This document shows, in pieces, positions 20,298-42,001 of a stretch of 64,000 bases of DNA (position 1 is its first letter; the number at the start of each line of letters is the position of its first letter). The position numbers were made by a program, and so were the translations under genes. The stretch is from the IMG/VR virus record IMGVR_UViG_3300017788_001394, positions 39,293 through 103,292 of that record; one strand, given 5' to 3'. A model generated the notes under the pieces. The model worked only from the letters and a program-made list of their open reading frames with translations. It ran no database searches and was not told where the DNA came from. This DNA comes from a virus.

Positions 20298-20844
20298 TAA
20301 TAGTAGACAATACTTAGAGAAGTATAAAAATCTTAAAGACGGTTATTACGAATATCTAATAAATGGCACCACTCGTAACTTATATACTAAATTTGAAGAT
20401 AATAGTGGTTGGATTCAAGTTGTAGTAGTTGACTGGAATAACAGAGATCATGTTAATCGTGATGAAATAGTAAATGTTAAATTAAACGACCATGACATAA
20501 ACTTCTTGCGGTCTGACATATTCGATTATAATATAATGGCTAGTGCCGAGATCTTTAAGGAACCATTCAATGAATGGATACGCTATCCACACAACATGTA
20601 TGTTCACAAATCAATGATTGAATTTAATAGTATTTCGCTAGCATCAGATACTCCTAACAGTAATCTAGTTAGTATTGACTTAAACGCACCACCACTTGCA
20701 ATATACCAAGATACTCAAGACATTGGGTTCGGCGGCGGCAGCAGTGGTATAGGAGATACATTTTTTGCATATAGCAGAGAAGGACGTAACGGATTAGTTC
20801 AAAGTTTTTGCGGACCTGCAAGAGGTGCTGTATACGTTAGATGA
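20287..20844 (+). CDS. Hypothetical protein, weak fibrinogen-C-like N-terminus
   Basis: DGYYEYLING...LYTKFEDNSGWIQV. Confidence 0.4.
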   Translation: MGFSNSRQYLEKYKNLKDGYYEYLINGTTRNLYTKFEDNSGWIQVVVVDWNNRDHVNRDEIVNVKLNDHDINFLRSDIFDYNIMASAEIFKEPFNEWIRYPHNMYVHKSMIEFNSISLASDTPNSNLVSIDLNAPPLAIYQDTQDIGFGGGSSGIGDTFFAYSREGRNGLVQSFCGPARGAVYVR

Positions 20845-22010: not shown

Positions 22011-22012
22011 AC

Positions 22013-24845: not shown

Positions 24846-26074
24846 TGTCGAATATCCCTGATAATTTTTGTTCGGCTCCGTGGAGTGCAGTGTATGTGGA
24901 TCCGGTCGGTTATGTCGGACCTTGCTGTATATATCGTATGGATGACGAAACAGCATACGGTAATTTAAACAACGATTCAATGAGTAATATAGTTAACAGC
25001 GATAACGCAAGAAAACTAAAATTACAGCTCATTAATAATGAACGACCCGTCGGATGTAACAACTGCTGGGAAAGCGACGATAAAAATTTAACAAGTTTCA
25101 GACATTCTTGGAATGAACGAGACAATAAACAAATTGAAGATTTTTTGAATTATACTAGCAACACAGGGGATTATAATTATTCAAACATAAATTACTGGGA
25201 TATACGACCTAGTAATTTATGTAATCTAGGTTGTATTATGTGTACACCGACACTTAGTTCTGGGGTGTGGCAACTATACTCTGACTTAGGAATGTTAGCA
25301 AAAGATAACGTAAAAAAATTTAAAAAAATGAGCGAAGATGATATCAATTTAACATTGCAATACATCAAAGAAAAAGTATCAGAAAATCATAGTAACGGAA
25401 TAAATGATCATTTTTATTTTGCAGGTGGCGAACCGTTGATTATGCCAGAGCACAAAAAAATTATCGACATGTTAGAGCAGGAAAACTTTTATCATGTCTC
25501 ATTACGATATAATACAAATTTAACGTCAGTTGTGTTTAAAGATATTAATTGGTTAGATAAGTGGAAAAAATTTCAGAACGAAATAATTATCGATGCATCG
25601 ATTGACAGTACAGGAGACACTGCTGGCATACAACGATTCGGAACTGACTGGAATGTGATTAAGAACAATTTAAAATTAATTGCTGCTAGTGATAATATTA
25701 AAATAACATTTAACATTGTAGTATCTATCTTAACTTACCCTGTATTAATAGATACACTAACCGAGTTAGAAGAAATATTCGGTAACGAATATCTGAGATA
25801 CTGTGTAAAATTGACACCGTTACAATACCCTGAATTCTTATGTTTAAACAGTATAACAGATAATCATATTGACTATTCTATAATACATAAAGTAAATGAA
25901 ATGGGCTATAATGTCAGTGAGTTAGGATCTTTGTTAAGAAATAGAGAAAAATTCGTTACACAGCATGATATGCGATCGATCGCCACTGCTCGTAATAAAC
26001 TGTTTAACAGATTATATAAAATAAAAAACATAGATGTAAGAAATATACTACCCTGGTTTGTATTAGATGAATAA
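24845..26074 (+). CDS. Radical SAM protein with N-terminal twitch domain
   Basis: FCSAPW...PCC...YGNL...CNNC; CNLGCIMC; AGGEPL. Confidence 0.9.
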   Translation: MSNIPDNFCSAPWSAVYVDPVGYVGPCCIYRMDDETAYGNLNNDSMSNIVNSDNARKLKLQLINNERPVGCNNCWESDDKNLTSFRHSWNERDNKQIEDFLNYTSNTGDYNYSNINYWDIRPSNLCNLGCIMCTPTLSSGVWQLYSDLGMLAKDNVKKFKKMSEDDINLTLQYIKEKVSENHSNGINDHFYFAGGEPLIMPEHKKIIDMLEQENFYHVSLRYNTNLTSVVFKDINWLDKWKKFQNEIIIDASIDSTGDTAGIQRFGTDWNVIKNNLKLIAASDNIKITFNIVVSILTYPVLIDTLTELEEIFGNEYLRYCVKLTPLQYPEFLCLNSITDNHIDYSIIHKVNEMGYNVSELGSLLRNREKFVTQHDMRSIATARNKLFNRLYKIKNIDVRNILPWFVLDE

Positions 26075-26183
26075 CGAAAACGTCAGAACAATGTCTGGGC
26101 ACCTTAATGCCATTGGTTACGAGTTATTTGCACAATATGTATATGAGTTACTTACAGCAAAAATAGCAAAGAAAAATGAGTAA
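26067..26183 (+). pseudogene. 38-aa ORF resembling an orphan SGNH hydrolase C-terminus
   Basis: MNNENVRTMSGHLNAIGYELFAQYVYELL matches block V (H.N..G...A); overlaps both neighbours. Confidence 0.45.
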
Positions 26184-27561
26184 AATTAAACCAATTTGGA
26201 ATCATGACGGTAGCTGTTCAAACGACAGTCCTAATAAAGTTTTCTGTATGGCACCATGGTCACATACATATATTAGTCCGCAAGGAGAACGTCGTCTGTG
26301 CTGTGCTAGTCGTGAAGAACACAGTTTTCAAAAACAATATATTGACGCTAGCAATGACGAAAAATACGGCGCTGTAAAAGAGTCTAAGACCAGTGCAGAT
26401 GAGTTTAATCCGCTAACATTAGAAGAGCATTGGAATAGTCCATATATGCGTGATATACGCAAGAAATTAATGGCAGGCGAGCGTATTCCACAATGTGATG
26501 TTTGTAATGATGATATACTTAGTATAAGCAGTTATCGTAAATGGTTTACAGGTGTGTTGTTTAGAGATAAAATCGAACAAGCGTTTGATAATACAGACGA
26601 CGACGGATATACATCTATGCCTGCTATATCGTTCGATTATCGATATAGCAATTTGTGTAACTTTAAATGTCGTATGTGTGGAGAGCAACTTAGTAGCAGT
26701 TGGGAATCAGAAAAAAAGAAACACGACTTGTGGACTCCAAAAAATCAACCGTTTATGATACCCGAAGTCAAACAAAAAATGACACTGTTTCAGCGTAACG
26801 TAGTTGAGCCAGAATTTAAGAAAGCAATCAGTGATGGCATTGTAGAAGAGATTTATTGGGTCGGAGGCGAGCCTTTAATGTATGATATACATTGGTGGGC
26901 ATTAGAAGAAATGATACAAAACAACAGTGCTAGAAACTGTTACTTAAGATACAATTCCAACTTGTCACGAATCGAATACAAAGGCATGAATTTGTTCGAC
27001 TACTTACCGCAATTTAAAAATTGGTTAATGTGTGCAAGTATCGACGGCACAGGACATATTGTAGAATTTATCCGTAAGGGTATTGTTTGGGAAGAGTGGT
27101 TAGCAAACTTTAAAACAGGATTAGCAGCACCCCACGGAAAAGATAGGATGTTATTTGATTTAACAATAACAGGCCCCGGCATGTTTGCACTTAAAGATTT
27201 GTTTGATTTGTCGAGAGAATTAGATGTAAGAATCGAAACAAAAATAATGTTTGCTTTTCACCCCGACATTGTGTTTAGTCCGTTTGCTTGGCCCAAACAC
27301 ATACTAGATCGTAAAATAGATCAATTATTAAACTATATGGACCCGATAGCAACACATAAACAGCTATCTCTTGTTAACACACTTAAGGAAATGAAAAAAC
27401 GTCCAACCTTTGCAGAACAATGGCCTGACACACATAAGCAGTCATTTATTAACGGTCGAGGCTGGCAACAAAAATTAGACACGATACGCCAAGAGCAGTA
27501 TCGATTAGAAGATATATATAAAGAAGATAACGAATTATACAATTGGTGGACACAAAATTGA
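26176..27561 (+). CDS. Radical SAM protein with N-terminal twitch domain
   Basis: FCMAPW...LCC...CDVC; CNFKCRMC; VGGEPL. Confidence 0.9.
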   Translation: MSKIKPIWNHDGSCSNDSPNKVFCMAPWSHTYISPQGERRLCCASREEHSFQKQYIDASNDEKYGAVKESKTSADEFNPLTLEEHWNSPYMRDIRKKLMAGERIPQCDVCNDDILSISSYRKWFTGVLFRDKIEQAFDNTDDDGYTSMPAISFDYRYSNLCNFKCRMCGEQLSSSWESEKKKHDLWTPKNQPFMIPEVKQKMTLFQRNVVEPEFKKAISDGIVEEIYWVGGEPLMYDIHWWALEEMIQNNSARNCYLRYNSNLSRIEYKGMNLFDYLPQFKNWLMCASIDGTGHIVEFIRKGIVWEEWLANFKTGLAAPHGKDRMLFDLTITGPGMFALKDLFDLSRELDVRIETKIMFAFHPDIVFSPFAWPKHILDRKIDQLLNYMDPIATHKQLSLVNTLKEMKKRPTFAEQWPDTHKQSFINGRGWQQKLDTIRQEQYRLEDIYKEDNELYNWWTQN

Positions 27562-28823
27562 CAGCAAATAACTACAAGTGGCACTATTTAAATAGTGCAG
27601 AAGCTAATCCAATGTACGAACAAATGGCTAGTTTTATTAAGGAGAATGACTGTAAAACTGTTTTAGATATCGGATGCGGGTTTAGTAGAATCAATGAGTT
27701 TTTAACCAATGATTATTCGATAAATGGTCTAGATTCTGATATAGATTGCATAAATTATTGTTTGGAAAATCATTCAGGAAAGTATGTAATTGGCGATGTC
27801 ACTGCCATAGAAAAATACACCGAGCTCGGCACACATTACGATGCTATTGTGTTAAGTGGTATACTATATTATTTTGGTAAAGGCGATATGCCAACTGTCG
27901 AAGACTACGTTGACAGGTTGATTAAACTGTATAGCCCCAGAATAGTTATAGTATGCGAACCAAGGCCTAGTCTTGTTTATATAAGTCCAAACTTTACTGA
28001 GTTACTAGACAGATATGCATACGTTGCAAAACAATTCGATATGAAAATTCGAATGGGAAACAGAATTGTTTATTGTTTATACACAGACAGAAATCGTCCT
28101 GAGCGCAAAATAAAAGCAGAATTCAATGAACACTCGGAACTATATAATCATATTAAACAAAGTGACTTTGATACTAATCGATTGAAATATAATGTTTATC
28201 TCACCAATACAGAAAACATATCAAACGACAGAGACGGCGAATTATTTCCGCAAAATGTAAATAATTATCATTATATAAGTGTTGCAGCTGGATTTAAAAG
28301 TTTGTTTAAAGCAGTAATAGATTGGGAAGCCCACAAAGAGTTTAAATTTATATATGTTGATGTTGTTCCTACTGCATTAGATTACCGAATGTTCTTTGAT
28401 TTTAAACTTAAGCAAAACAGTAAAATATCATTCAATGAAATATATAACTTGTATGTCAGTGAGATAAACCCAAATATTATTCCCATATATGGAACGAATA
28501 ACGTTGACATAGATGAAACAGTAAAAATGCAATTAAAAGAACTCGACATTGACTTTCAACACTGGCAAGACTTTATTGCTGCATATAGTCAAATTGAAAA
28601 AACATATATCAAATTGGATGCAGTTAATAATATAAAACTTCTTAAAAATCTTATAAATTCGTGTACAGATGATAATCTAAAATGGTTTTGGTATAGTAAT
28701 ATGTTTGATTGGCACCAATTTAGATTTAAAGAACAAACATATTATCGATGGGTTAAATACTTAGATAATAATATAAAAGGCTTAAAATTGAATGGTCACA
28801 CCCCGCCGTTTACTACTTCATGA
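27543..28823 (+). CDS. SAM-dependent methyltransferase with additional C-terminal domain
   Basis: VLDIGCG, GLDSD, YDAIVLSGILYY; second Rossmann-like segment ISVAAG...YVDV. Confidence 0.75.
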   Translation: MVDTKLTANNYKWHYLNSAEANPMYEQMASFIKENDCKTVLDIGCGFSRINEFLTNDYSINGLDSDIDCINYCLENHSGKYVIGDVTAIEKYTELGTHYDAIVLSGILYYFGKGDMPTVEDYVDRLIKLYSPRIVIVCEPRPSLVYISPNFTELLDRYAYVAKQFDMKIRMGNRIVYCLYTDRNRPERKIKAEFNEHSELYNHIKQSDFDTNRLKYNVYLTNTENISNDRDGELFPQNVNNYHYISVAAGFKSLFKAVIDWEAHKEFKFIYVDVVPTALDYRMFFDFKLKQNSKISFNEIYNLYVSEINPNIIPIYGTNNVDIDETVKMQLKELDIDFQHWQDFIAAYSQIEKTYIKLDAVNNIKLLKNLINSCTDDNLKWFWYSNMFDWHQFRFKEQTYYRWVKYLDNNIKGLKLNGHTPPFTTS

Positions 28824-29613
28824 TATTATATTCAGATATTGCCAGTTCGTAAGTCAAGCAGTAATAGGTGTGTATGTCCATGATATTATTAATATAGGTC
28901 TTGATAGGCTAGCAACAAACATATCAAACGACATTTTTTCTGACCCGGCATGGGAACATATAGAACAGTCGAGCGAGAATTTAATATTTAAAAGAAATTC
29001 TTTCAACCTGTGCATTATAACTACATATCGAAAATACAAAGTTTTCATCGGCACAAACGCAGTGATAAGCAATGTTAACTTCTTATACGCAGCTGACATA
29101 TTTAAAGATAATTTAGCAATAAAAACAACAAATGTGTTTTACAACAACTTCTCGTATAGGGTTGAGTGTAGTGATTTTATACCGGGCATTACAATATCTC
29201 AATTCTTAGAAGACGACCAAGAAGGCGAATCATTGGAAAAATTTAGGGATGCAGATGTATTATTAACTACTGTTGCAAATTATATAGGAAAGAATTTTTA
29301 TATAGACAGTGACGGATTTGTGTTATACCCGTCAGATTTACAAAGTACTAACTTAATACTGACCAATCTAGATACTGATCCAGAAATTATATTAATAGAT
29401 TTTGATCACATTATTAAACAACCGTATGAACGGATGTATACAGATGTAGCTAACAGATTTTTTACTCATATATCTAAATACAATTTTGACAGTAAACGTT
29501 TTCCGGTCAATTCGATACAACCATTCTGGAAACACCATTTATTAACACATACTATAGACGAAATTAAAACTGATTTTATAAAGAGAATTGACAATGCAGT
29601 TAGAAACAAATAA
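28792..29613 (+). CDS. Protein-kinase/APH-like fold protein
   Basis: DFIPG, SDLQSTNLIL, LIDFD. Confidence 0.55.
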   Translation: MVTPRRLLLHDIIFRYCQFVSQAVIGVYVHDIINIGLDRLATNISNDIFSDPAWEHIEQSSENLIFKRNSFNLCIITTYRKYKVFIGTNAVISNVNFLYAADIFKDNLAIKTTNVFYNNFSYRVECSDFIPGITISQFLEDDQEGESLEKFRDADVLLTTVANYIGKNFYIDSDGFVLYPSDLQSTNLILTNLDTDPEIILIDFDHIIKQPYERMYTDVANRFFTHISKYNFDSKRFPVNSIQPFWKHHLLTHTIDEIKTDFIKRIDNAVRNK

Positions 29614-30811
29614 CCCATATTTTTGTATACTACCATGGATACATATGCACATATGGCCAAATGGCACAACTTATCCCTGCTGTCTATCAACTAACGATTA
29701 CAAACTAGGAAATACAAATGATAGTAGCTTCTTAGAAATATGGAACAGCGATAAAATGAGATCATTGAGAACAAATGTTCTCAACGGTAAGCCAACATCT
29801 GGTTGTGCAAGGTGTTACGAGCATGAAAAAAATGGCGCAAGAAGTATGCGAATAAATCTTAACCGAGACTATGAGCATTATTTTGATCGAACCAAGTTAA
29901 CTAAAGAAAATGGTAGTTTAGACGAAATATTCATGGCTTATATGGATATTCGGTTTAGTAATATTTGTAACTTTAAATGCAGAACATGTGGTCCAGAGTT
30001 AAGTAGCTTCTGGGTCGACGATGCTGTTAAGATGAATCGCTATTCGTCGACGCAACCTAAAATACTTAAAATCAAAAATACATTAGAAGAACTGTGGCAA
30101 GATATGGAGCAGTGGATAGACACTGTGGAAAAGATTTACTTTGCAGGCGGCGAGCCATTAATAATGGACGAACATTATAAAATATTAGAATATCTTATTA
30201 AGATAGGAAAAACTAATATTAACATATTTTACAATACTAATCTAAGTAAATTAAAATACAAAAATAAAGATATAATCGAATTATGGAAACAGTTTAGTAA
30301 AATCAGTGTCGGTGCAAGCATAGACGGTATGAATGGTCGTGCTGAATACATAAGAAGCGGAACAAGCTGGTTCGATATTGAAAAAAATAGAGAGCTGTTA
30401 CTCACTGAATTGCCTGAAGTAGAGTTTCACATAACTTCTACTATAAGCGCATATAATGCAGAACACTGCCCCGACTTTTTCAATAATTGGATTAATAAAG
30501 GTTTTATTAGTGCAACTGATATAGATTGCAATGTGCTGCTGTATCCGGAATTTCAACGAGCACAAGTGTTACCAGAGTACAAAAGAAAAATGATACAAGA
30601 AAAATATCTGCAATTTATATCAGATCATAAATTAAAAGAAATGGTCGCTGCCCAACATCGTTATGTTAGTTTCAAAGCAGTTGTGGATTCGTTAAATGTA
30701 GACAAGTCAAACTTACTTCCTCAATTTGTTGAATACAGTAAACGGCTAGACAAAATAAGAAATGAACATTTACCGGATATCTTTCCGGAATTAAGGTTCA
30801 TGTATGAGTAA
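29594..30811 (+). CDS. Radical SAM protein with N-terminal twitch domain
   Basis: FCILPW...PCC...LGN...CARC; CNFKCRTC; AGGEPL. Confidence 0.9.
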   Translation: MQLETNNPYFCILPWIHMHIWPNGTTYPCCLSTNDYKLGNTNDSSFLEIWNSDKMRSLRTNVLNGKPTSGCARCYEHEKNGARSMRINLNRDYEHYFDRTKLTKENGSLDEIFMAYMDIRFSNICNFKCRTCGPELSSFWVDDAVKMNRYSSTQPKILKIKNTLEELWQDMEQWIDTVEKIYFAGGEPLIMDEHYKILEYLIKIGKTNINIFYNTNLSKLKYKNKDIIELWKQFSKISVGASIDGMNGRAEYIRSGTSWFDIEKNRELLLTELPEVEFHITSTISAYNAEHCPDFFNNWINKGFISATDIDCNVLLYPEFQRAQVLPEYKRKMIQEKYLQFISDHKLKEMVAAQHRYVSFKAVVDSLNVDKSNLLPQFVEYSKRLDKIRNEHLPDIFPELRFMYE

Positions 30812-32006
30812 CACTTTTTGCCCGTTATTATTTCAACACTTAGCAACGCATCCCCACGGCGGTGTTACTCATTGCTGTATCGCCGATCACCGAAATGCAT
30901 TAAGCAGTGCAAGAGATGTGACCGATACCGGACACAACTACTATAACTTAAATCGTAATACAGTTAGTGATACATTTAATAGTGAAAGTTTCCGAACAGC
31001 TCGATTGCAAGTGTTAGAAGGTAAAAAGCCACAAGCATGTTTAAGATGCTATAGCGAAGAAGCTAAAGGCATAAGAAGCAAGAGGCTAGAAGAAATCGGA
31101 AACTATCCTGATTATACACTAGATATAGCTAAATCTGTTACAGATAATAATGGTTACATACAAAATATACAATTTGATTTTGTTGAATTGCGTCTGGGTA
31201 ACGTTTGCAATGTTGCGTGTAGAACATGCAATCCTGCAAGTAGCAGTAAGTGGCGCAATGATTATGACAAACTACAAAGTTCTTTGCCGTTTTCTATTAC
31301 AAACTACGATACGATCGAGGGATTCAGGTGGCCTGAACGTGAAGCATTCTGGGAAGATTTGTTACAACATTGTAATAACGTAAAGACATTTTACATTAAC
31401 GGCGGCGAGCCTACACTAATTAAACAACATTTTAAGTTTTTAGAACGTCTGGCTAGTATGGGCAGAACTGATGTTAAACTTTGGTATAACATTAATATGA
31501 CTAACATGAACGAAGAAATAATAGAAGTTTGGAAAAAGTTTGATAAGGTTAAAATTAGTTGCAGCATAGATGATTTAGGTTCGAGAAACGAATACATACG
31601 TTATCCCACTAAGTGGGACGATGTAATGCGTAATTTTTTGAGGTTAAAAGAAGAAAATTTTGAATTAGATGTTACACAAACTGTATCATTTATGAATTAT
31701 AGCAACTTGACCGAATTTTATAACTTTTTTCACAATGAACACAAGGTTTGGGTTCATCATAACTTTGTATATGATCCTGATATTTTAAGTCCTGGTGTAT
31801 TACCTAAGGAGATCAGAGATAAAATACATGCACGTATGCACAACATTTTCGAGCCATGGCAAGTAAATATGTTTGTTAACATGTATAACAATGCAGATAA
31901 CAACGAAAAGTGGAGTCGTGCGGTAGCATATACTAAATCATTAGACAGAATACGCAATCAATCGATCGTTAACGCTTTGCCTGAATTCGAACATATAATA
32001 AAGTAA
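30804..32006 (+). CDS. Radical SAM protein with N-terminal twitch domain
   Basis: FCPL...HCC...CLRC; CNVACRTC; NGGEPT. Confidence 0.9.
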   Translation: MSNTFCPLLFQHLATHPHGGVTHCCIADHRNALSSARDVTDTGHNYYNLNRNTVSDTFNSESFRTARLQVLEGKKPQACLRCYSEEAKGIRSKRLEEIGNYPDYTLDIAKSVTDNNGYIQNIQFDFVELRLGNVCNVACRTCNPASSSKWRNDYDKLQSSLPFSITNYDTIEGFRWPEREAFWEDLLQHCNNVKTFYINGGEPTLIKQHFKFLERLASMGRTDVKLWYNINMTNMNEEIIEVWKKFDKVKISCSIDDLGSRNEYIRYPTKWDDVMRNFLRLKEENFELDVTQTVSFMNYSNLTEFYNFFHNEHKVWVHHNFVYDPDILSPGVLPKEIRDKIHARMHNIFEPWQVNMFVNMYNNADNNEKWSRAVAYTKSLDRIRNQSIVNALPEFEHIIK

Positions 32007-32022: not shown

Positions 32023-33504
32023 TTAAACTCCTAGCGTATCTGTTTCTGTATTCCACCCTCCGGTGCCTGCTACAATGTCGTCGTTTAAATAATGTTCTGT
32101 CGTTGCAGGGTCTATTGCGGATGTAATACTAGGGACAACTATATCCGGGTTGTAAGATATGCTATCGTACCATTCTACAAATGTAGGAAATGCAGCACGG
32201 AAATCTTTGTTACGTCTGATGTCATACTGCTCATAGAAATAACGGAAGTCATTATATAACTTAGGTGTTTCTGCTGTATTGCGATGTGGCGTTTTAACAA
32301 CGTCTAAATAATCGATCAGTCGTTGAACATGTGCAACTTCACCCTGACTTAAAAACTCTTGTTTTGTTGGTAACCAATCTTCAAGTTTTTTCTTAAAAAT
32401 TGCTTTCAACTCTACCGGCAATATCGCAGCACTTTGGAAACTAGGAAAGCGCAATATGTTGAGTGTCATAGTAGGAGCACGAAATCCGTATTCTTTTCTA
32501 AGCTCTAACATGTCGTCCATAAATTCAGTTATAGACTCTAAACACAAACTATTAATAGTCATCATACAATGTAATTCTTTAACGTTAGATTCCTCTAACA
32601 ACCTTACAATGTTACTACGCCAGATTTTGTAATCAAACCCGTCACGGGTATATTCGTTTTGTGTCGCTGCACATTCAGCACTGGTATATATTTCAAAATT
32701 TTGTATGTCAAAACTTGCGTCTATTAGTTTTTGAAACATGCGCTCATTTTCGGGAACAAGATTGCTATTGATAGCAAAACGCATAGTGCTTGTTGGGTTG
32801 TCACGAAACCAATCAAACAGTTTCCAAACAGACTTATGCATTAATGGTTCGCCGCCTGTGATTCGGATTTCTTCTAGTTTATCACTAAGACCATTTTCCC
32901 ACCACTTCCAAAACGCAATAATATATGGATTGTCTTCTTCATGCAATGTTTTACGTGCAGCCCAGGGCGCAGTATCGATAAAGTGCCCACGTCCATCACT
33001 TTGGATATTCATGTAAGGACCTTTATCTTTAATGTCTTTAACCCATGTGCTGCTGAATGCAGGATTGCAATAACTACATGCAAAGTTACATGCACGGTCA
33101 AACGCAATTTCGAGTGTTCTTAATGTGACATCTTGATCCCATGGCGTAGTAACACACGCTTTTACATCTTCGTCACTGAATATTTGCGTTTTATAAACAC
33201 GGTCGCTAATGTTGTTTCGTCCAATATCTTCCACTTTCCAACAATATTCGCATTCTTGTGGACGCTCACCTTCCTGCATCATTTTACGCATAAGTTTTTT
33301 GTGTTTAGTGTTATGAATAGCGGTAGGATTAATCATTAATTCATCGGTTGGGATCCAATGTCCTGGTGGATGGTGACAGCTAGTAGTTTGACCATGACCC
33401 AGCCATATTGTAGCATTGTACCACTTAGCTGCACAAAAACTTTTACTTATCGGATCAATTATGCGTTCTTTATATTCGTGATAACTTTCATTATTTTTTT
33501 TCAT
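32023..33504 (-). CDS. Radical SAM protein with N-terminal twitch-like domain (CHHP variant)
   Basis: FCAAKW...SCHHP...CEYCW; CNFACSYC; TGGEPL. Confidence 0.9.
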   Translation of the reverse strand: MKKNNESYHEYKERIIDPISKSFCAAKWYNATIWLGHGQTTSCHHPPGHWIPTDELMINPTAIHNTKHKKLMRKMMQEGERPQECEYCWKVEDIGRNNISDRVYKTQIFSDEDVKACVTTPWDQDVTLRTLEIAFDRACNFACSYCNPAFSSTWVKDIKDKGPYMNIQSDGRGHFIDTAPWAARKTLHEEDNPYIIAFWKWWENGLSDKLEEIRITGGEPLMHKSVWKLFDWFRDNPTSTMRFAINSNLVPENERMFQKLIDASFDIQNFEIYTSAECAATQNEYTRDGFDYKIWRSNIVRLLEESNVKELHCMMTINSLCLESITEFMDDMLELRKEYGFRAPTMTLNILRFPSFQSAAILPVELKAIFKKKLEDWLPTKQEFLSQGEVAHVQRLIDYLDVVKTPHRNTAETPKLYNDFRYFYEQYDIRRNKDFRAAFPTFVEWYDSISYNPDIVVPSITSAIDPATTEHYLNDDIVAGTGGWNTETDTLGV

Positions 33505-35072
33505 GTTTTGTTACTTTCGTTAAAATGTTTATAGCAATCGTTCCACCAGTTTCCTAGTTCGGGAAAAACTTCAGGGAACTTAGTGTTTCTTCTTTGATCA
33601 ATTTGATTAAAATATAACCAGAACTGTTTTTTTCTTCTAGCTATCTCTGCAACAGAAAGCTCTGTTTTTCCGTTTTTGATCCAAGCAATGTCTCTTTTAA
33701 GTTTAGCGATTTCGTAGTGCTTGAACCCATGATACGTTCTGCCATAGTGTTCATTTTCTACATTATTTTCCATGAAAACTAAACAATCTTCTAACATAGA
33801 AATAAGTTCAGGATAAAACGCTGCATTTTGTGCGCTCATCCATTCTGGCTGACGAAGATATGGAATATCGAACCAAACTCGCTGGCGACGTTTTCTAACA
33901 AAAGGAGGATGCACAAAACCGTTACGGTCGGGAGGTTGTATAACATGATCTGTTTGATTTTCATAACCAAATTCTATACGCAAATCTAAAATCATTTGCA
34001 AAAATTCTTTAAGACGAGGAATACTTAGTAAGTTAAATGTGTTAATAAAACTTATCTCTGATCCATGTGTTTCTTTCATGAATGTTTTAATATTTTTCAT
34101 CATACGTTCGTAATTGAGACCTGTTCTGATATATTCCGCTTGTTCACCTGTACTATCTAAGCTAATGAACAAACTAAAATGTTTACATGCAGGGGCCACA
34201 TACCAATTATTACCGCTATCTGGGTTAAACTTTTCTTTATCTTCCCAAATTCTAACTTCCTCGATAGCTTTTAGTTTTTTAATAAATTTATCGAATAAAC
34301 GTTGATCAGGTGGACACATATTACTAGTTATACTTAAGTCTAATGTAGAATTTGGATTTTTGTTAACATAATCTAATACTCTAAATGTATTTTTATCCAT
34401 TAGAGGTTCGCCGCCGGTCATACGAAAAACTTTCAAATCCTTATACAAATCAGGCCACCAGTCCCAAAAGGCCTCTACATAAGGATTATCTTTATTACTA
34501 GAATTGATAGGCATTAACCCCGCAGCAGATAAACTTTTAATATCGTTATGTTTAAAGTTGTCGCCGAGATCATACGGGCCATAATCTTCGATTTCTTTTT
34601 GCCAAGATGTGCTTAAATGAGGACTGCAATATGTGCATTTAAAATTACATGCTTGATTGAAATTAACTTCAACATATCTTGGATTAATGTTGTTGTCCCA
34701 CCCGCCGTCTATTACTTCGTCCCAACCATCTTGTGCCCATACTTCGCTGCTACGATAATGCCTATCGCTTAAATGGGGTCCATCGGGAGCGTCTTCGATA
34801 TTCCAACAATATTGGCATCCAGCTGGACGTTTACCTTGCCACATATCTCTGCGTTGTTTTACTTTTTCCATTGTATTGTGCAACGCTTTAGGATTTACTT
34901 CTAATTCGTCTAAAGGAATTTTGTGTGTTGGCGGATGGTAGCAGCTTTGCGTTAATCCTGATGTTAAATGCATACTGACTTGCAACCATTTAGCCATACA
35001 CATAGTAGAACTAATCTGATTTAACTTGTCTTTAGTTTTTTTTGCTTCTTCGAAGTAATCAAGAGCTGCCAT
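33501..35072 (-). CDS. Radical SAM protein with N-terminal twitch-like domain (CYHP variant)
   Basis: MCMAKW...SCYHP...CQYCW; CNFKCTYC; TGGEPL. Confidence 0.9.
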   Translation of the reverse strand: MAALDYFEEAKKTKDKLNQISSTMCMAKWLQVSMHLTSGLTQSCYHPPTHKIPLDELEVNPKALHNTMEKVKQRRDMWQGKRPAGCQYCWNIEDAPDGPHLSDRHYRSSEVWAQDGWDEVIDGGWDNNINPRYVEVNFNQACNFKCTYCSPHLSTSWQKEIEDYGPYDLGDNFKHNDIKSLSAAGLMPINSSNKDNPYVEAFWDWWPDLYKDLKVFRMTGGEPLMDKNTFRVLDYVNKNPNSTLDLSITSNMCPPDQRLFDKFIKKLKAIEEVRIWEDKEKFNPDSGNNWYVAPACKHFSLFISLDSTGEQAEYIRTGLNYERMMKNIKTFMKETHGSEISFINTFNLLSIPRLKEFLQMILDLRIEFGYENQTDHVIQPPDRNGFVHPPFVRKRRQRVWFDIPYLRQPEWMSAQNAAFYPELISMLEDCLVFMENNVENEHYGRTYHGFKHYEIAKLKRDIAWIKNGKTELSVAEIARRKKQFWLYFNQIDQRRNTKFPEVFPELGNWWNDCYKHFNESNKT

Positions 35073-36049
35073 TAAATACTATCTATAACCTCAGTTTCAC
35101 GAATCATTGCACCTGTTCTAGCAGGATTTTTATAAGTTGTTTTAAAGAAGCGACTACCGGTCCAATCTAAATCAGCGATTTCAAGATCAAGATTACTTCT
35201 TAATTCATTACCAAGTCTTACTGTTTCTGCTTTTAATTTGATCGGATCCCAACTGTATCCTGTACGTGGACAAAGTTCTGTCCCATCTTCAAACTGGGGC
35301 GCTAATTCTGTGTTAAAGTAATTGCTTAACCAATCAAAGTCTCTAACGTTTTTCCAGTCCCATTCATGACGCAATATGTTTGTCATATAGCATCCCAATC
35401 TTGCGCCGTATACAGCCCACAATCCGTTTGGTGCATCTTCGCCTACGCTCATCCAAACCAACAAACGCTTATAGTTTTCTCTATGAATTTTCTTAAGTTT
35501 ACTAGGATCGACTACATCGCCGTTTTCTAATCCCATTTTTACACCTTCACGGAAACCAGCACGCCATGCTTGCAACGGACTGCCGTTGTTGTAGACATGA
35601 CTATACCAGTTATTCATTTGAACGTAGTGAATATTCCAACAGAAATCTACTTGCGCCCGCTTATCAGTAGGAGGTGCTGCTTCGTGTGTTCGCATACGCA
35701 TCACTACATCAACCGGCCAACATTTAATGCCGCCGTTGCCGTAAATTAAACCGTTAATTTGATTTCGTGCAGCCCAGCTAATAACATCATTACTACGAAC
35801 TTTATCCATATTGATTTCAACATTAAAAAAATCTTCGTTGACAATGTTGTCAGCATCAATTGTAATAAATCGTTCAGTTTCACTTAGTGCAGCGGCTGCT
35901 TTGTGTGCAGCATCACTGCCCCAAACACCGTGACTACGTTTAGCCCAAGGACATTTTGTTAATAAGTCTGCATAGTTTTCATCTGCATTAGGCTCGTCGT
36001 AGCTAATGTAGACAATATCAAAATCGTTAATACTTACCAGATTTGACAT
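35072..36049 (-). CDS. Glycosyltransferase-like protein (GT-A fold)
   Basis: ISYDEPNA, GSDAAHKAAA, TIDADN, YGNGGIK, AWRAGFREG; paralog of 8575-9288. Confidence 0.7.
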   Translation of the reverse strand: MSNLVSINDFDIVYISYDEPNADENYADLLTKCPWAKRSHGVWGSDAAHKAAAALSETERFITIDADNIVNEDFFNVEINMDKVRSNDVISWAARNQINGLIYGNGGIKCWPVDVVMRMRTHEAAPPTDKRAQVDFCWNIHYVQMNNWYSHVYNNGSPLQAWRAGFREGVKMGLENGDVVDPSKLKKIHRENYKRLLVWMSVGEDAPNGLWAVYGARLGCYMTNILRHEWDWKNVRDFDWLSNYFNTELAPQFEDGTELCPRTGYSWDPIKLKAETVRLGNELRSNLDLEIADLDWTGSRFFKTTYKNPARTGAMIRETEVIDSI

Positions 36050-37034
36050 ATTCAATTTCCTCAAATTTAAAAGTTATATTTTTGCCTTCTTCGCCTAATA
36101 ATAATTTACATGTAGTAGGATCTATCGTAGTCTTTACTATGTATTCTTTAAAGTTACCAATTTGATCGTAAGGTATAATTATCTTGTCAAGCAGTATATT
36201 AGGATCTTTGCCTGTTAAAAAAATCTTAAGGTCTTTGTATATTTTTTGTTCTTGCGGATTATCAAAGTTACTTCTAACAATCCATCCTTCTGTAGACGGG
36301 CTAACAGAAAATGTACTCCATTCTACTGTGGATTTTTGAATTATAGTTTGCATTCTCTTGTTGTTTCTTCTAGTATGATAATCTATGTTAACATAGTTTT
36401 GTTTTATTTTCAAGCCATAATTTTTAAAAATTCGTCTTGTTAACACGTCTACACTTGCAAGATCGAGTGTATTTTGCAAATGAGATAAATCTAAGATTGT
36501 GTAACCGTTTTTTACAATATCTATTACTTTGATTTTTATCGTTTCTAATAGATGGGTTGGATTGTTCTTTTTAATAAGATAAAATACTAAGTAATTCTCA
36601 TCAGAATCGTCAGTATAGTAGCGATTGTTAAAACGTTTACCTGTCATTTTGTAGATAGTATCTTGATTTAAGTTAACTTCCATTCTATAATCGTTTATAT
36701 ATAAAATAACATTAACATCGCTATCTATAAAGTTTTTTACTCTAGGTATTTTAGTTAGAATTTCCTCGGCTTTTTTAATTGCAAGCACATCAGATTTTGG
36801 TAATAGTTTCATACCGTCTACTAAGTTACTCACTACATATTTTTTGGGATTTAAAATGCCCATCATTAATTTTGCAGCAGTTTCATCTTCTGTTATAATG
36901 TGAGGATAGCTTTGCTGTTTGTATTTACCGGTGATACTTTTGATCTCACCTGTCCAGTCGTCGTAATATACGTAGTACTTAGGTAAAGTCTTGCCTTCAT
37001 CTGCTATTTGAATTAATCTTGGCTCTGATGACAT
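36027..37034 (-). CDS. Hypothetical protein
   Basis: 335-aa ORF overlapping both neighbours; no motif recognised. Confidence 0.7.
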   Translation of the reverse strand: MSSEPRLIQIADEGKTLPKYYVYYDDWTGEIKSITGKYKQQSYPHIITEDETAAKLMMGILNPKKYVVSNLVDGMKLLPKSDVLAIKKAEEILTKIPRVKNFIDSDVNVILYINDYRMEVNLNQDTIYKMTGKRFNNRYYTDDSDENYLVFYLIKKNNPTHLLETIKIKVIDIVKNGYTILDLSHLQNTLDLASVDVLTRRIFKNYGLKIKQNYVNIDYHTRRNNKRMQTIIQKSTVEWSTFSVSPSTEGWIVRSNFDNPQEQKIYKDLKIFLTGKDPNILLDKIIIPYDQIGNFKEYIVKTTIDPTTCKLLLGEEGKNITFKFEEIEYVKSGKY

Positions 37035-37866
37035 CTACAATATCTTCTGTTAAAAACGACTTATCGTGATAGTGAATGATACCTGAATTAATAACATAAT
37101 TTTCGATAATCAACTTCCCGGCGTCGGTATACCAATGATTTAACATTTCTGTCCAATTTATAGGTATATCTTCATTCCATAACCATTGGCTTCTTAGATC
37201 TAAATCGTACAGATTGTTCAAACTAACTGTTACTTCACTATTTACATCTAATAAATGTGTTACAATATTTGCCAACACATTTTTATCAAAGGACAGTGGT
37301 TTTTTGTCACTTAATAATTTACTATACACACTTCTCCAATTCTGGAAAATCGGGTCGGCCATCTTAAACCATTGAATGGCCAGTGGCATGTTACGATCAA
37401 AGTATATCAAATTATTAAAATTTGTAGGTAACTGGTAATGCATTTCAATATCAAAATACCGATTATAATTAATAACTGTGTTTCTAAATGTTCTTGCTAA
37501 ATTGGAAACTGCAAACCCTGTTGCATTAGCAGACATTTGTCCCCACAGTAACTCGATGTCCACATTATTGAATATCGTATCATAATCTACATAAATGGTT
37601 TCATCGAACGGTGTAGCATGAATTAGCTGCCATAAGTTCATTCCATGGAAACCATCTTTATATGCAGTGTTACCGAAAGGTAGCTCTGCTATATAATTAA
37701 AAGCATGAAAGTAATTAGATGGGACTAAATCTTTTTTGCCATTATCGACAATCAGACAAGTTTCCGCAGTTGGGTCACTAGCTTTGATACTCATCGCAAG
37801 ACCGTAGCTGTATTTTATCATATCTCTGTCGGTGTTGATACCGAGTGTAACAAATCCTCTAGACAT
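36997..37866 (-). CDS. Glycosyltransferase-like protein (GT8/mannosyltransferase-like)
   Basis: RGFVTL...LAMSIK...TPFDETIYVDYD...IHYHDK. Confidence 0.65.
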   Translation of the reverse strand: MSRGFVTLGINTDRDMIKYSYGLAMSIKASDPTAETCLIVDNGKKDLVPSNYFHAFNYIAELPFGNTAYKDGFHGMNLWQLIHATPFDETIYVDYDTIFNNVDIELLWGQMSANATGFAVSNLARTFRNTVINYNRYFDIEMHYQLPTNFNNLIYFDRNMPLAIQWFKMADPIFQNWRSVYSKLLSDKKPLSFDKNVLANIVTHLLDVNSEVTVSLNNLYDLDLRSQWLWNEDIPINWTEMLNHWYTDAGKLIIENYVINSGIIHYHDKSFLTEDIVDVIRAKINSNSR

Positions 37867-38768
37867 TAAAATTTTGCCTGTAATTTTTCAATAAAAAGAT
37901 CGGCGTGTCTACTGATTGCCCTTTTATTCATAACGTGTATATTTGTATTTTCTAATCTAACAAGAATATTCTTCCAAGGCTCTTTTCTATTATGGCTTAA
38001 CATAATTAGATCAGTTGTATCTTTGACTTCTATTAAATCATCTTTTTGGTCCATATTGAGTAACGGCACTGATAAACCTTCAACAAATGAATCATTTGTA
38101 AACCCGTTCAATAAATGAGCAGCAATGCTAACACAAAAATCTGTTCTAAATAGTGCAGGTGGGAATTGATATAGAAGATAATAATAATCCCAGTTGTCTT
38201 TCACATGTGACCATATATCAAAAAAGATTTCTGCTTCGTCACTTTTGTCAAAATATACTACAGTAGACCACCAATGATGTATACCCGTTTCGTTCAGATC
38301 ACATTCATTCATATAAGGACGTTGTCCTTCTAAGTATATAGAATCCCTGTGTAATGCCAATGGCATTGTACTGTCAAACAAGAAATCGTAATAATTGTTT
38401 TGTATAAAATAATCGGTGTCGATTAATAATGTTTTGTTATACGGAGAAAGTTGAAAAATGTCGTGTTTGTTGCTGTTACTAAATTGGGCATTAAATTCAG
38501 TCCACGGACTGTCGTAATGCTTTCGTGGATTAGACTTGTGTTCAACATCCTGAATAATAATATTGTCAAAGCATTGATTGTGCCATTTTTTATCCGTCGA
38601 TTCTTTCAACCAGTTATAAGTGCCGTTGTCTGTAACTAGTGTCACAGAGTTATTTTTCATATTTTGCTTAACATATGCGGCTGCAATGTGAGCCATTTTA
38701 ACATAATCAATTTGACTATTGTTATATGCAAACATGCACACACCGTTTTCTTCTTCACTCATTACCAA
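37866..38768 (-). CDS. Glycosyltransferase-like protein (GT8-like)
   Basis: GVCMFAYN...SPYNKTLLIDTDY...WSTVVYF...FRTDF...HVMNK. Confidence 0.65.
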   Translation of the reverse strand: MVMSEEENGVCMFAYNNSQIDYVKMAHIAAAYVKQNMKNNSVTLVTDNGTYNWLKESTDKKWHNQCFDNIIIQDVEHKSNPRKHYDSPWTEFNAQFSNSNKHDIFQLSPYNKTLLIDTDYFIQNNYYDFLFDSTMPLALHRDSIYLEGQRPYMNECDLNETGIHHWWSTVVYFDKSDEAEIFFDIWSHVKDNWDYYYLLYQFPPALFRTDFCVSIAAHLLNGFTNDSFVEGLSVPLLNMDQKDDLIEVKDTTDLIMLSHNRKEPWKNILVRLENTNIHVMNKRAISRHADLFIEKLQAKF

Positions 38769-39109
38769 CCCATTAATTTTTTAACGTTTCTTGCTCTGTT
38801 TACTTTATCTAACAGTGTTAGATATTCATTGGTTGCTTCAGTATATTTTTCAATAAGCAAATTAAAAAACTCTTTTAAATCATCAATTTTAATAGGCGTT
38901 TCTTTTGTATCTAATAAAATAGCACTTGTTTTATTAGCCGTTAATAAACCGCTAACAATACCGATCGTAATAGCATCTGCTAAAAAACTTCCGTTATTAT
39001 AATGAACTAACTGTAATATTTGCATTCTACTGCGAATATTACGTTTTTGATTTGCTAATGTTTGTCTGTAGTTTGCAAAGTCTAGAGCTTTTTCGAGTCT
39101 CTCATCCAT
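38762..39109 (-). CDS. Hypothetical protein (possible tail-fibre assembly/chaperone-like)
   Basis: 115-aa ORF with AGGAG RBS; first gene of the GT/rSAM unit, directly after the fibre genes. Confidence 0.55.
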   Translation of the reverse strand: MDERLEKALDFANYRQTLANQKRNIRSRMQILQLVHYNNGSFLADAITIGIVSGLLTANKTSAILLDTKETPIKIDDLKEFFNLLIEKYTEATNEYLTLLDKVNRARNVKKLMGW

Positions 39110-39136
39110 GCGAGTTTCTCCTTACAATTAACTACT

Positions 39137-39165
39137 ACTATAATTATTTATTATCAGGTTGTCAA
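39137..39165 (-). promoter_or_regulatory. Sigma70-like promoter (TTGACA-N17-TATAGT) containing a nested late-type AATAAATA
   Basis: Read on the minus strand upstream of ATG 39109. Confidence 0.55.
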
Positions 39166-39173
39166 GCTATTTT

Positions 39174-40460
39174 TTAGCTATCGTCCATTGTGTTGAAATT
39201 GTCTGTAATTACAACATAAGGATCTGGGTTAACGTCAAACGTTGCTGAACCTGCCCAACTAGTTCTTGTTATTGTATCTGGCATAAGATATGTAAAGTTG
39301 GAAGCAATTTGACCATCGATTGTTTGATCGTATGCAGTATCATCTAACACTACTTTAAAATGTATTTCAGTGCCGCCGGTTGCCCACTTGCCATAAATTT
39401 TAAATCTTAAACTTGCATAACCACTATACGATCCATACGAAGATGCATAAACGGATGTTCCATAGCCGTACCCGCTGGGAGGACAATAATGATAGCCAGT
39501 TGTATATCCGGTCATATAACTACTTACAAAACCGTAATAACCGCTATATGCATAACCGTAGCCGTAACCATATCCATAATTGCTAAAACCTATATTAACT
39601 GTAACTCCGGAACTTTCAAACAACAATCCTTCATTGGTTGAAGTATCGCTGCCATCGCCATAGTTTTCTGTTAAATGGTAAAAACCTTTACCGTAACTTG
39701 TTCCTGCAGTATAATAATTGTTGCTTTGATAAAAGTTATCAACAGTGAACGTTAATACACCCATTTCATTTATAACATCAGACCAGTTGTAATAACCTGC
39801 AGTGCAACCGCCTGACATTTCTAACTGAATACGTAACTGACCACCACCATTGAAAAAATGTCTTGCATGATTGTAATCATCAAATACCCATTTATATTCT
39901 CCGGTTATTTTATTTGTCCATGGAGTTGTTCTTTCCATATCGTTTGGTGTTTGCGCTGCGATTAGTAAACTTGCATCAGTTGGATCGATCGAGTTGTAAT
40001 TATAGTTAGGTATAACACTGGTGTTGATTTTATTTTCAACAACATTTAAGTCTTCTGCTCGTATTAATGTATATTTGTCAACTGTGTTTCTGCCTGTCGG
40101 CACAGCAAACACTAATATTGTATCGGTTACGTTAATGTGATCGACCATGATGTTTACACGATCAACTAAAAACTGTAATCTTTCTGCAGTAATTAAATCA
40201 CCAACCGCAATATTGTTAGCAGTGTTTACTGCACCCCACCCAAATCTATAGTTGCCATAAACTGCAGGTGCACCGTTTATATCGGTGCCACGACTGATGT
40301 TTGCGTATTGTGATGTATTAAATGCAGGTGTTGTTGCACTTGCTTCTGCAGAAGTCAATGGTGTAGAAGTAGGGTAGTTATCGCCGAACACTTTGTTTAC
40401 AAGTGTTGCGATGCCGTTATACTCACTACCGTATACCTTTGACCCCGGAGTAACAACCAT
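39174..40460 (-). CDS. Putative virion/tail-fibre structural protein with Tyr/Gly-rich insert
   Basis: Position after baseplate genes; GWG...ITA, ARHFFNGGG motifs; YGYGYGYGY tract. Confidence 0.65.
   Translation of the reverse strand: MVVTPGSKVYGSEYNGIATLVNKVFGDNYPTSTPLTSAEASATTPAFNTSQYANISRGTDINGAPAVYGNYRFGWGAVNTANNIAVGDLITAERLQFLVDRVNIMVDHINVTDTILVFAVPTGRNTVDKYTLIRAEDLNVVENKINTSVIPNYNYNSIDPTDASLLIAAQTPNDMERTTPWTNKITGEYKWVFDDYNHARHFFNGGGQLRIQLEMSGGCTAGYYNWSDVINEMGVLTFTVDNFYQSNNYYTAGTSYGKGFYHLTENYGDGSDTSTNEGLLFESSGVTVNIGFSNYGYGYGYGYAYSGYYGFVSSYMTGYTTGYHYCPPSGYGYGTSVYASSYGSYSGYASLRFKIYGKWATGGTEIHFKVVLDDTAYDQTIDGQIASNFTYLMPDTITRTSWAGSATFDVNPDPYVVITDNFNTMDDS
39417..39578 (-). repeat. Protein-level YG/GY low-complexity tract (18 Tyr in 54 aa)
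   Basis: YGYGYGYGYAYSGYYGFVSSYMTGYTTGYHYCPPSGYGYGTSVYASSYGSYSGY, encoded with mixed synonymous codons. Confidence 0.9.
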
Positions 40461-40463
40461 TAC

Positions 40464-41381
40464 TTACTTTGCTCCTACGACCACTTCGACAGTACCTGCG
40501 TCGAGTGTCTCTTTACTTGAAAGAGCTCTGCCAATAATACGTCTATAATCTCCCAATTCATTTGGATATGCTACACGAGCATGTCCGGCGACCTCGCTAG
40601 TCACAAGTCTTTCACCTTTTTTAACAGGACCAATTACTTTACATGGAACACGACCTGCTAACGCAACATACGGATGTGTTGCATCACTGCCTGCGCCGCT
40701 ATTCATTTCAAAGCCAGGTGCAGTAGAAATTATACCAAACACGTTTATGCTTGCAGATTCAGTTGACTCTGTTATTTCTTTTTCACCACCTAAAATCACT
40801 ACAGTTCCTGGTTCGTATTCGTTGTCAGCAGCATAACGTTCTGCAAGGTCAGCATATTCTGCACTAGTAGCAGTGCCTCTAAATTTAAAATTTGCTGTAG
40901 TATTCATGTTGTCGCCTGCTTGTAATACAGGAAACTGTGTGCTTAACATCGTTAAGCCGTCTTCTAAAAACTCAGTTGTTGCAGGTGTCCATGCTGTTGT
41001 GTCACTAACTTGTATAGTAACGATATCGCTATCGACTATAGTTTCTATTGTATAATGGTAAACACCCAGTGTGTCAAGTCTACTTCTAGCAACAACTCGT
41101 GTTCCGCCTGCTTGGAAACCTATCGGCCACCATGCACCGTTATCATACAAATACAATTGACTTTCGGTAGTGTTATACCAAAGTTGACCTTCGTTCGGAT
41201 TTGTTGGCGCAGTGTCAGCTGAGTTGTTGGCTAATAATCTTAAAAAATTTTCATTTAGTGCTTCACCAAACATACTATAATTTCGACCGATGAGCTTTAG
41301 TGTAGTGCTAGTGTCTACGGTTCCGTCGTTAACGATAATAGGTGTTTTACCTGCATCTGGCCAATCAACTGTATACGGCAT
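40464..41381 (-). CDS. Short tail-fibre-like protein with C-terminal intramolecular-chaperone (peptidase G2/IMC-like) domain
   Basis: LKLIGRNY..FGE..NENF...P..GQLWY N-terminal module; YADLAERY...GTVV..GG..EI...VALAGRVPCKV. Confidence 0.7.
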   Translation of the reverse strand: MPYTVDWPDAGKTPIIVNDGTVDTSTTLKLIGRNYSMFGEALNENFLRLLANNSADTAPTNPNEGQLWYNTTESQLYLYDNGAWWPIGFQAGGTRVVARSRLDTLGVYHYTIETIVDSDIVTIQVSDTTAWTPATTEFLEDGLTMLSTQFPVLQAGDNMNTTANFKFRGTATSAEYADLAERYAADNEYEPGTVVILGGEKEITESTESASINVFGIISTAPGFEMNSGAGSDATHPYVALAGRVPCKVIGPVKKGERLVTSEVAGHARVAYPNELGDYRRIIGRALSSKETLDAGTVEVVVGAK

Positions 41382-41392
41382 CTTTTTTTCCT

Positions 41393-42001
41393 TTATACAT
41401 CACTATACGATGTTCTGATTCTTAAAGTATATATTACTTGTATTTTTCTATTTGCGCTCTTCTGAACCGGATGGAAAATAACATGAGTTAACATTGTGCT
41501 ATTTGCAGTATAAAGTGCAAGCTCGTCAAAAACATAAGTGCCGTTCATATCAACACTTGTATCTAGTGCATCTTGACCTGCTGGTTGGTTGTAATCAAGT
41601 GTGCAAGTTACTACCACATCACTATATAACTCACCGGAAGTATGTGTCACTTCTACACTGTTGGTTGCTGTGCCAGTTATGGTTTCGTCGACTGTTTGTG
41701 CATATGTTTGATTATATAGCGCACCTGCTGTGATATTAGTGTTTGTTGCTTTGTATGTAACTGCACCTAATCCGTCGATAATAGTACCACCATTACCAAA
41801 ACGCATTTGTGCTATTGCATACGTTCCAATTCCACCAGCTTCGTTTGCTAATAAATTTGCAAGTGCAATACTCATATTTTCATAGTTGATAGCATTACGA
41901 CGGCGAACTAAAATTTCACCGTTGTCTGGATCCCATATTGTTATGTGTCCTTCTATTCCGAACACCGGTTTTTCAATTATCTTACTCATAGTTTTTTCCA
42001 T
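41393..42001 (-). CDS. Putative baseplate/tail structural protein
   Basis: Context; FGNGG, FDELAL, THVIFHPVQKS beta-rich pattern. Confidence 0.55.
   Translation of the reverse strand: MEKTMSKIIEKPVFGIEGHITIWDPDNGEILVRRRNAINYENMSIALANLLANEAGGIGTYAIAQMRFGNGGTIIDGLGAVTYKATNTNITAGALYNQTYAQTVDETITGTATNSVEVTHTSGELYSDVVVTCTLDYNQPAGQDALDTSVDMNGTYVFDELALYTANSTMLTHVIFHPVQKSANRKIQVIYTLRIRTSYSDV

Follow-up and report, generated by a model that had tools for sequence, protein, structure and literature searches.

Why would a protein encoded among the tail genes of a large phage carry a loop built chiefly of tyrosine and glycine, next to a long run of enzyme genes? The question is raised by a 64,000-nucleotide stretch of viral DNA (hereafter the window; positions 39,293 to 103,292 of IMG/VR record IMGVR_UViG_3300017788_001394), taken from a 103-kb record that is estimated to be 28% complete. 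On the minus strand of the window, a 428-amino-acid open reading frame (ORF) at 39174-40460, whose product we call P0001, contains a Tyr/Gly tract at 39417-39578, corresponding to residues 295-348. A first interpretation, made from the letters of the DNA alone (the sequence-only reading), took the tract for a candidate substrate of neighboring tyrosine-modifying enzymes. Here we describe it as what appears to be an insertion of variable length, specific to its family, in a single loop of a predicted beta-sandwich, carried by a putative tail-fibre-associated protein of marine Rak2-like jumbo phages, and gained and lost independently of the radical S-adenosylmethionine (SAM) enzymes encoded beside it.

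The 54 residues of the tract comprise 18 Tyr, 13 Gly and 9 Ser, with no Asp, Glu, Lys or Arg, and our recount agrees exactly with the composition first given for it (18 Tyr in 54 residues, uncharged). This tyrosine content far exceeds chance. Tyrosine accounts for 5.4% of the 20,698 residues encoded by the window's large ORFs, giving a binomial tail of 2e-10 per window position for at least 18 Tyr in 54 residues; the runner-up stretch of that length in the window has 10, and none of 20,000 shuffles of P0001 reached 18. Composition and chance tests, taken together with the structural model, the family alignment and the substitution rates described below, define an insertion slightly longer than first noted, spanning residues 288-348 (39417-39599, minus strand). 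Since its codons are mixed (TAT 14, TAC 4; GGT 5, GGA 4, GGC 3, GGG 1) and the 6-nt periodicity that Tandem Repeats Finder detects is only weak (score 30, 73% matches), the tract in the window is no fresh slippage array, and DNA slippage is rejected as its origin; the (GGY)n array of a relative, L077, by contrast contains runs of identical 9-nt units. A scan of 38000-41500 on both strands against Rfam returned no RNA families.

Selection on the loop can be gauged from three close relatives at 83-92% identity. Where it can be computed, the ratio of nonsynonymous to synonymous substitution rates (dN/dS) is 0.06-0.18 for the loop, which is therefore kept at the protein level by purifying selection, yet it evolves relatively fast, its dN being two to four times that of the remainder of P0001 in the same relatives. 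Mixed codons, the weak repeat signal and these ratios all bear out the earlier suggestion that the tract is maintained at the protein level. In every pair (with L010, L002 and L003), dS is also higher in the loop, at 0.67 to >1.8, than in the rest of the gene, at 0.27-1.3, which may reflect repeat misalignment or local recombination.

In the family alignment, the loop is an insertion between two conserved beta-strands, found at the same site across clades. In this alignment its length is 5-75 residues (median 50) and its composition 24% Y, 20% G and 15% S; among relatives at large it ranges from 5 to about 80 residues. It is the indel hotspot of the protein, with gaps amounting to 37% as against 4% elsewhere, and identity falling to 44% as against 60%. 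Deep-branching relatives (25-32% identity) carry (GGY)x4-21, (SGY)n, (NGY)n or (AY)n at this site, and certain of them have only about three loop tyrosines; across the family, the flavors seen there are thus (GY)n, (GGY)n, (SGY)n, (NGY)n, (AY)n, or nearly nothing. A periodic-Tyr tract occurs in about 17 of 117 full-length superfamily representatives. Because this trait requires at least 14 state changes on a rough FastTree tree of 109 representatives (shuffled labels require 21 on average and 16 at minimum), its distribution points to repeated gain and loss of the tract. Some members of the family, L074/L085 (IMGVR_UViG_3300025652_000098) and P0113, which have a Tyr loop of (SGGY)n type, reach 706-736 amino acids through a repeat-rich insertion of about 300 residues in the N-terminal domain. 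The shortest loops are those of P0105, P0107 and P0112; when viral contigs were scanned with P0107, all the relatives recovered had longer loops.

The protein that carries this loop has 119 close homologues in metagenomes, and a profile search extended the set to 1,141 representative clusters at E <= 0.001; tblastn against 50,697 deposited phage records gave no matches, and no family was matched in Pfam or PHROGs. From the ORF, its homologues and an AlphaFold2 (AF2) model with a predicted local distance difference test score (pLDDT) of 79.8, P0001 is predicted to consist of a helical N-terminal domain (residues 1-160) followed by a beta-sandwich (residues 163-428). Foldseek found nothing for this model in the PDB at E <= 0.001, the matches in BFVD were three uncharacterised viral proteins only, and a wide VIA search yielded lectin/galectin- or jelly-roll-like matches at Z 4-5.6, which are too weak to name a fold family. 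Because AF2 confidence is low over residues 288-345 (pLDDT <50, predicted disordered), the tract is probably flexible. A second segment with pLDDT <50 lies in the N-terminal domain (residues 44-65; 40266-40331); this insertion is specific to the window's nearest relatives and falls mainly on gaps in the family consensus.

The P0001 gene is flanked by tail-fibre-like, gp6-like and gp25-like genes and lies between the tail-fibre-like genes and the baseplate. Directly upstream, on the same strand, is a 305-amino-acid tail-fibre-like protein (40464-41381) with PHROG matches to virion/tail-fibre families; it is accompanied on the upstream side by a 202-amino-acid virion protein homologue (41393-42001, minus strand; phrog_11259), a 3692-amino-acid protein, and gp6-like and gp25-like baseplate genes. 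The 202-amino-acid protein shares 42-44% identity with Rak2/GAP32/CBB-like jumbo phage proteins, and together with the baseplate and tail gene setting this places the source phage, which is uncultured, among the marine relatives of Rak2-like jumbo myoviruses. The CBB homologue of the 202-amino-acid protein is annotated as structural. An N-terminal fibre motif in the 305-amino-acid protein is common to CBB_231, likewise annotated as structural, and to the N-terminus of ORF355 of the Ralstonia phage RsoM2USA (MG752970.1; L224 in our set), a cultured soil jumbo phage with a complete genome of 343.8 kb. ORF355 is a fusion, with residues 5-94 matching the 305-amino-acid fibre-like protein and residues 89-311 matching P0001, without the Tyr loop. 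Its location in the tail module and this fusion suggest that the P0001-type protein is tail-fibre-associated. The RsoM2USA homologue of the 202-amino-acid protein, ORF356, was detected in virions by liquid chromatography-tandem mass spectrometry (PMC8504454); that analysis covered the ten most abundant bands only, and it identified ORF356 and ORF361, with no report of ORF355 (PMC8504454). The sequence-only reading had called P0001 a fibre protein, which holds for the tail-fibre/baseplate module in which the gene sits but not for the predicted fold, a helical N-domain and a beta-sandwich being no fibre.

What might such a loop do? The role that we favor is one in which it works unmodified. Its tyrosines, which appear at a fixed period (each second or third residue) between small uncharged spacers, would form an exposed, multivalent surface that binds a ligand of the host envelope, and the most plausible ligand would be a glycan, held by aromatic stacking. 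We infer the exposure of the loop, the presence of the protein in virions and the binding role alike, and we judge an unmodified tyrosine array serving as the binding surface of a tail-fibre-associated, lectin-like domain to be about evenly poised between right and wrong. An unmodified adhesive or self-assembling segment had been only the fallback of the sequence-only reading; with the loop independent of the radical SAM genes, as described below, it becomes the preferred one. Segments of the [G/S]Y[G/S] and (GGY)n kinds, as in FUS-type domains and plant glycine-rich proteins, mediate sticky self-association or high-affinity binding, and minimalist antibody paratopes are built from the same restricted Tyr/Ser/Gly alphabet. 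The P0001 loop resembles these in its restricted alphabet and periodic Tyr, but they belong to eukaryotic or synthetic settings and have no homology to it, whereas in P0001 one such stretch is inserted as a loop into a folded domain of a phage protein.

The closest precedent within phages, a loose analogy with no homology, is the tip of gp38, an adhesin in which Gly-rich motifs and hypervariable segments decide receptor recognition (PMC12032242). Like gp38 of the T-even-like Straboviridae, P0001 would be a tail-fibre-associated protein of a large myovirus, with Gly-rich repeats, and it is variable, rich in indels and fast-evolving. Unlike gp38, which combines a beta-helix with a polyglycine-II sandwich, it is predicted to be a beta-sandwich with one inserted loop; the strictly periodic Tyr of that loop is a further difference, and its binding role is conjectural. 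Pfam, PHROG and tblastn (50,697 phage records) all gave no sign of homology between the two. Variable loops on phage tail proteins determine host range. In these abundant marine jumbo phages, periodic Tyr with small residues, in several flavors at one site, would offer a simple and distinct way to make a surface that binds or serves as an acceptor.

Several points weigh against a binding surface. Strictly periodic arrays, such as (GGY)x17-21, would be unusual as a specific receptor paratope, and they fit a compositional role (acceptor array, cross-linking or self-assembly) at least equally well. A glycogenin-like transferase gene is invariably found two genes downstream, the beta-sandwich has only weak structural matches (Z <= 5.6), and the presence of P0001 in virions, like its binding, is argued for indirectly.

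One such compositional role would be self-association or cross-linking, in which subunits or fibres would be glued to one another in assembly by periodic Tyr, arranged as a stacked beta or polyglycine-II-like structure or joined through dityrosine links. A period of two (xY) or three (xxY) would line up all Tyr along a single face, whether of a strand or of a polyproline-II or polyglycine-II helix, selection on composition is strongly purifying, and gp38 makes its polyglycine-II sandwich from Gly-rich motifs (PMC12032242). However, AlphaFold offers no confident structure for the loop, and at pLDDT <50 no polyglycine-II arrangement can be read from the model. A loop that varies between 5 and ~80 residues, and that most of the wider superfamily does without, is also hard to square with an essential role in assembly, and we regard this explanation as improbable.

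Chemical modification of the loop is the other broad class of explanation, and the window is well supplied with enzymes that might carry it out. It encodes eight N-terminal-twitch radical SAM paralogues within 19 kb. Two of them close the co-oriented module that follows P0001 on the minus strand (33501-35072 and 32023-33504; NF033640 scores of 296.7 and 299.8 bits, with Pfam Radical_SAM matches), and the six others lie on the plus strand in a convergent array (20841-32006), together with a methyltransferase-like gene and unassigned genes. In each protein of the array SPASM is N-terminal of Radical_SAM, the usual layout being a SPASM match at about residues 6-80 and a Radical_SAM match at about 118-300. 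The five proteins tested against NF033640 scored 261.3, 300.9, 402.5, 296.7 and 299.8 bits against a cut-off of 170 (the three from the array spanning 261-402), and by these profile scores the enzymes are full-length members of this NCBIfam family of twitch domain-containing radical SAM proteins. They are thus no new domain permutation, the family being catalogued; a literature search on NF033640 and the N-terminal twitch found no paper. Related records of 172-198 kb (those behind L032 and L009) hold 16-21 radical SAM matches, a remarkable array size for phages.

The sequence-only reading had proposed that the tract is a core like that of a RiPP (a peptide made by the ribosome and modified after translation), embedded in a structural protein and acted on by radical SAM-SPASM enzymes, which would excise, cross-link or rewrite its Tyr-Gly motifs, acting as spliceases or cyclophane formers do. 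The eight paralogues speak for this, as do the YG motifs, which are splicease targets (PMC11002830). Tyrosine-modifying radical SAM-SPASM maturases (PlpX, XyeB/YhhB/FxsB, PqqE, MftC) share with the enzymes of the window a SAM core, an auxiliary Fe-S domain and an adjoining Tyr/Gly-rich sequence. Unlike those maturases, the enzymes of the window have their twitch domain at the N-terminus, and they score only 13-43 bits on peptide-maturase models with cut-offs of 265-850 (XyeB 31.8 against 450, nif11-type 22 against 518.7, WgkB 37.3 against 650). Pfam scans of the radical SAM proteins returned SPASM, Radical_SAM and Fer4_12 only, and neither a PqqD or RiPP recognition element (RRE) nor a leader turned up in such general scans, which included no dedicated RRE search and easily miss divergent RREs.

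Comparison across loci bears on the same proposal. We compared 80 loci in which the loop-protein family is present, 80 in which the glycosyltransferase family 8 (GT8)-like gene described below is, and further deep relatives. Of the 48 loci that extend at least 9 kb downstream, 46 have N-twitch radical SAM genes after the loop-protein gene, which agrees with a RiPP-like role; those that lack them are (GGY)n members. No NF033640 gene is present in the entire records of four (GGY)n-type loops (L079, 34.8 kb; L081, 79 kb; L089, 37 kb; L127, 12.9 kb), these records being fragments of genomes that may carry one elsewhere. In the other direction, clade L210-L223 retains the full module, including L214, L215 and L222 with three loop tyrosines only, and RsoM2USA has an N-twitch radical SAM gene and no (YG)3 or (GGY)3 tract in its whole genome, the same pattern recovering the tract in the window's own record. 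Because the loop occurs in records without a radical SAM gene and the module occurs without the loop, the two vary independently. Loop Tyr count does show a weak positive trend with the number of radical SAM genes in the 10 kb downstream (Spearman rho 0.31, p 0.056), but the trend is non-significant and not corrected for phylogeny, the gene count saturates within the 10-kb flank, and the contigs are fragments. The covariation that had been suggested as a check thus fails both ways, and with the NF033640 membership and the low maturase scores the RiPP-like core is not borne out; we now consider it very improbable indeed. The result also narrows the role of the striking radical SAM arrays of these phages, in that they do not need the Tyr loop.

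A different modification is suggested by the genes that separate P0001 from the radical SAM enzymes. In order after P0001, on the same strand, come a 115-amino-acid gene, four genes of 290-335 amino acids and the two radical SAM genes, after which the convergent array begins. The first gene of the module encodes a conserved 115-amino-acid protein (38762-39109), present downstream in every related locus with enough flank; its RsoM2USA homologue is ORF354 (34% identity, E 7e-19), and family searches with it gave no significant match. The second, A2 (37866-38768), is a candidate glycosyltransferase of GT8-type GT-A fold, resembling glycogenin, to judge from its predicted structure, its conserved motif and its linkage. 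Glycogenin and UGGT are the top Foldseek matches of its AF2 model (pLDDT 90.4), at E of about 4e-7 and probability 1.0, with E 4.9e-7 for glycogenin-1. VIA aligns 226 of the 262 residues of human glycogenin-1, over the whole catalytic domain (Z 15.5, root-mean-square deviation 4.0), and gives UGGT, LARGE1, GlyE and LgtC at Z 14-15. A D116-x-D118 motif, placed after a beta-strand, is invariant in 35 sequences. No Pfam family, Glyco_transf_8 (PF01501) included, matched A2 at E <= 0.01, and in the Atlas, GT8 on 25% of members in a neighboring cluster serves as a lead only. The adjoining A5 (36997-37866, minus strand) is a paralogue of A2 (hhalign probability 96%, E 1.9e-9) with an invariant D93-x-D95.

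The tie between these genes and P0001 is strict. In all 70 loop-protein loci that reach at least 1.4 kb downstream, a glycosyltransferase gene lies within 1.5 kb, and a gene of the loop-protein family is present in all 74 glycosyltransferase loci that have upstream sequence. What is tied, though, is the P0001-family gene, the 115-amino-acid gene and the GT8-like gene, so that the linkage concerns the gene and not the loop; it also belongs to a lineage-wide syntenic block and is no independent proof of functional coupling.

These observations make the loop a possible, if less likely, multi-site acceptor for tyrosine O-glycosylation, and this is the main rival of the unmodified surface. The adjoining GT8-fold transferases would add sugar to loop Tyr in trans, and the large upstream island, with its nucleotidyltransferase, aminotransferase, carbamoyltransferase, methyltransferases and radical SAM paralogues, would supply and tailor the glycan. 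The acceptor in glycogenin is a tyrosine in a flexible segment. A2 matches glycogenin-1 over the entire catalytic domain, with an invariant DxD and a paralogue next to it, several of its top matches are enzymes of protein glycans (glycogenin, UGGT, GlyE, LARGE1), the gene linkage is complete in both directions, the island holds enzyme types that build sugar donors, and the loop conserves composition rather than sequence. In its likeness to GT8 and GT24 proteins (glycogenin, UGGT, GlyE, LARGE1, LgtC), A2 shows their fold over its whole length. Glycogenin, however, glucosylates itself, whereas A2 and the Tyr-rich protein are separate, A2 persists in loop-less phages, and Pfam GT8 is unmatched. 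A GT8 fold, moreover, leaves the acceptor unspecified. The glycosyltransferase genes are kept where the loop has three Tyr or none (L214, L215, L222 and RsoM2USA ORF355), and the loop therefore cannot be their essential acceptor. The earlier remark that Tyr can be O-glycosylated accordingly gains some support from a GT8 fold two genes downstream and loses ground to the persistence of the transferases without the loop.

The spacing of the genes further bears on whether the transferases and the loop protein act together. The 64-nt spacer between the P0001 gene and the 115-amino-acid gene is the sole real spacer in the block, and a consensus scan (11/12) finds in it a sigma70-like promoter, TTGACA-17-TATAGT (39137-39165, minus strand). 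A motif of this type is present in the same spacer in 64 of 66 distinct related loci, among them deep clades whose spacers are otherwise unalignable. Dividing the enzyme module from the structural gene, this conserved promoter counts against glycosylation of the loop: the module is probably its own transcription unit, and the argument from one operon shared with the fibres is weakened. The module is possibly also expressed earlier than the structural genes.

A bolder version, in which the GT8-fold enzymes act as a glycogenin in trans, starting chains on many loop Tyr, while the island (8-21 N-twitch radical SAM enzymes with carbamoyl-, amino- and methyltransferases) builds a complex glycan brush on the tail fibres of marine jumbo phages, seems to us somewhat less likely still. 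If true, phages would have here their first case of Tyr-linked virion glycosylation, and the uncharacterised family NF033640 would acquire a function.

The two remaining genes of the module lie between A5 and the radical SAM genes, on the minus strand. A3 (36027-37034) encodes a conserved 335-amino-acid protein that is syntenic in the main clades and has no Pfam or PDB sequence match. A4 (35072-36064; 330 amino acids, mean column identity 75%) is the most conserved gene of the module, with about 60% identity across clades in which the loop protein has 25-30%. It is 44.5% identical to RsoM2USA ORF350, with many invariant residues including a VDADN motif, and has a shorter paralogue at 8575-9288 in the upstream island; searches of Pfam and the PDB gave it no meaningful match, and glycosyltransferase leads for it in the Atlas are weak. 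Neither A3 nor A4 is called a glycosyltransferase, as hhalign gave a probability of 0.4% for A4 against A2 and nothing for A3 against A1. Profiles of four unassigned downstream genes had no matches among PDB sequences.

In RsoM2USA this strictly conserved module occupies nine genes, ORF355-347 (215.9-223.6 kb), all annotated as hypothetical. The fused tail protein ORF355 is followed by homologues of the 115-amino-acid gene, of both glycogenin-like transferase genes, of the unassigned A3 and A4, of one N-twitch radical SAM gene and of two more, unassigned, island genes. With the module present in a cultured phage, both tail-protein glycosylation and what NF033640 enzymes do can be put to experimental test.

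The upstream island contains a nucleotidyltransferase, HAD phosphatases, an aminotransferase, a carbamoyltransferase, methyltransferases and a canonical radical SAM-SPASM protein, a set of predicted enzymes that seems suited to the construction of a decorated sugar. Within 1-18479, the carbamoyltransferase is found at 9395-10927, the aminotransferase at 11455-12468, the canonical radical SAM-SPASM protein at 12470-13372 and the nucleotidyltransferase at 17144-17845. Also encoded in this region are a small protein (2974-3402) whose C-terminal domain is that of an Arg-tRNA-protein transferase and, at 4160-5638, a sodium:solute symporter.

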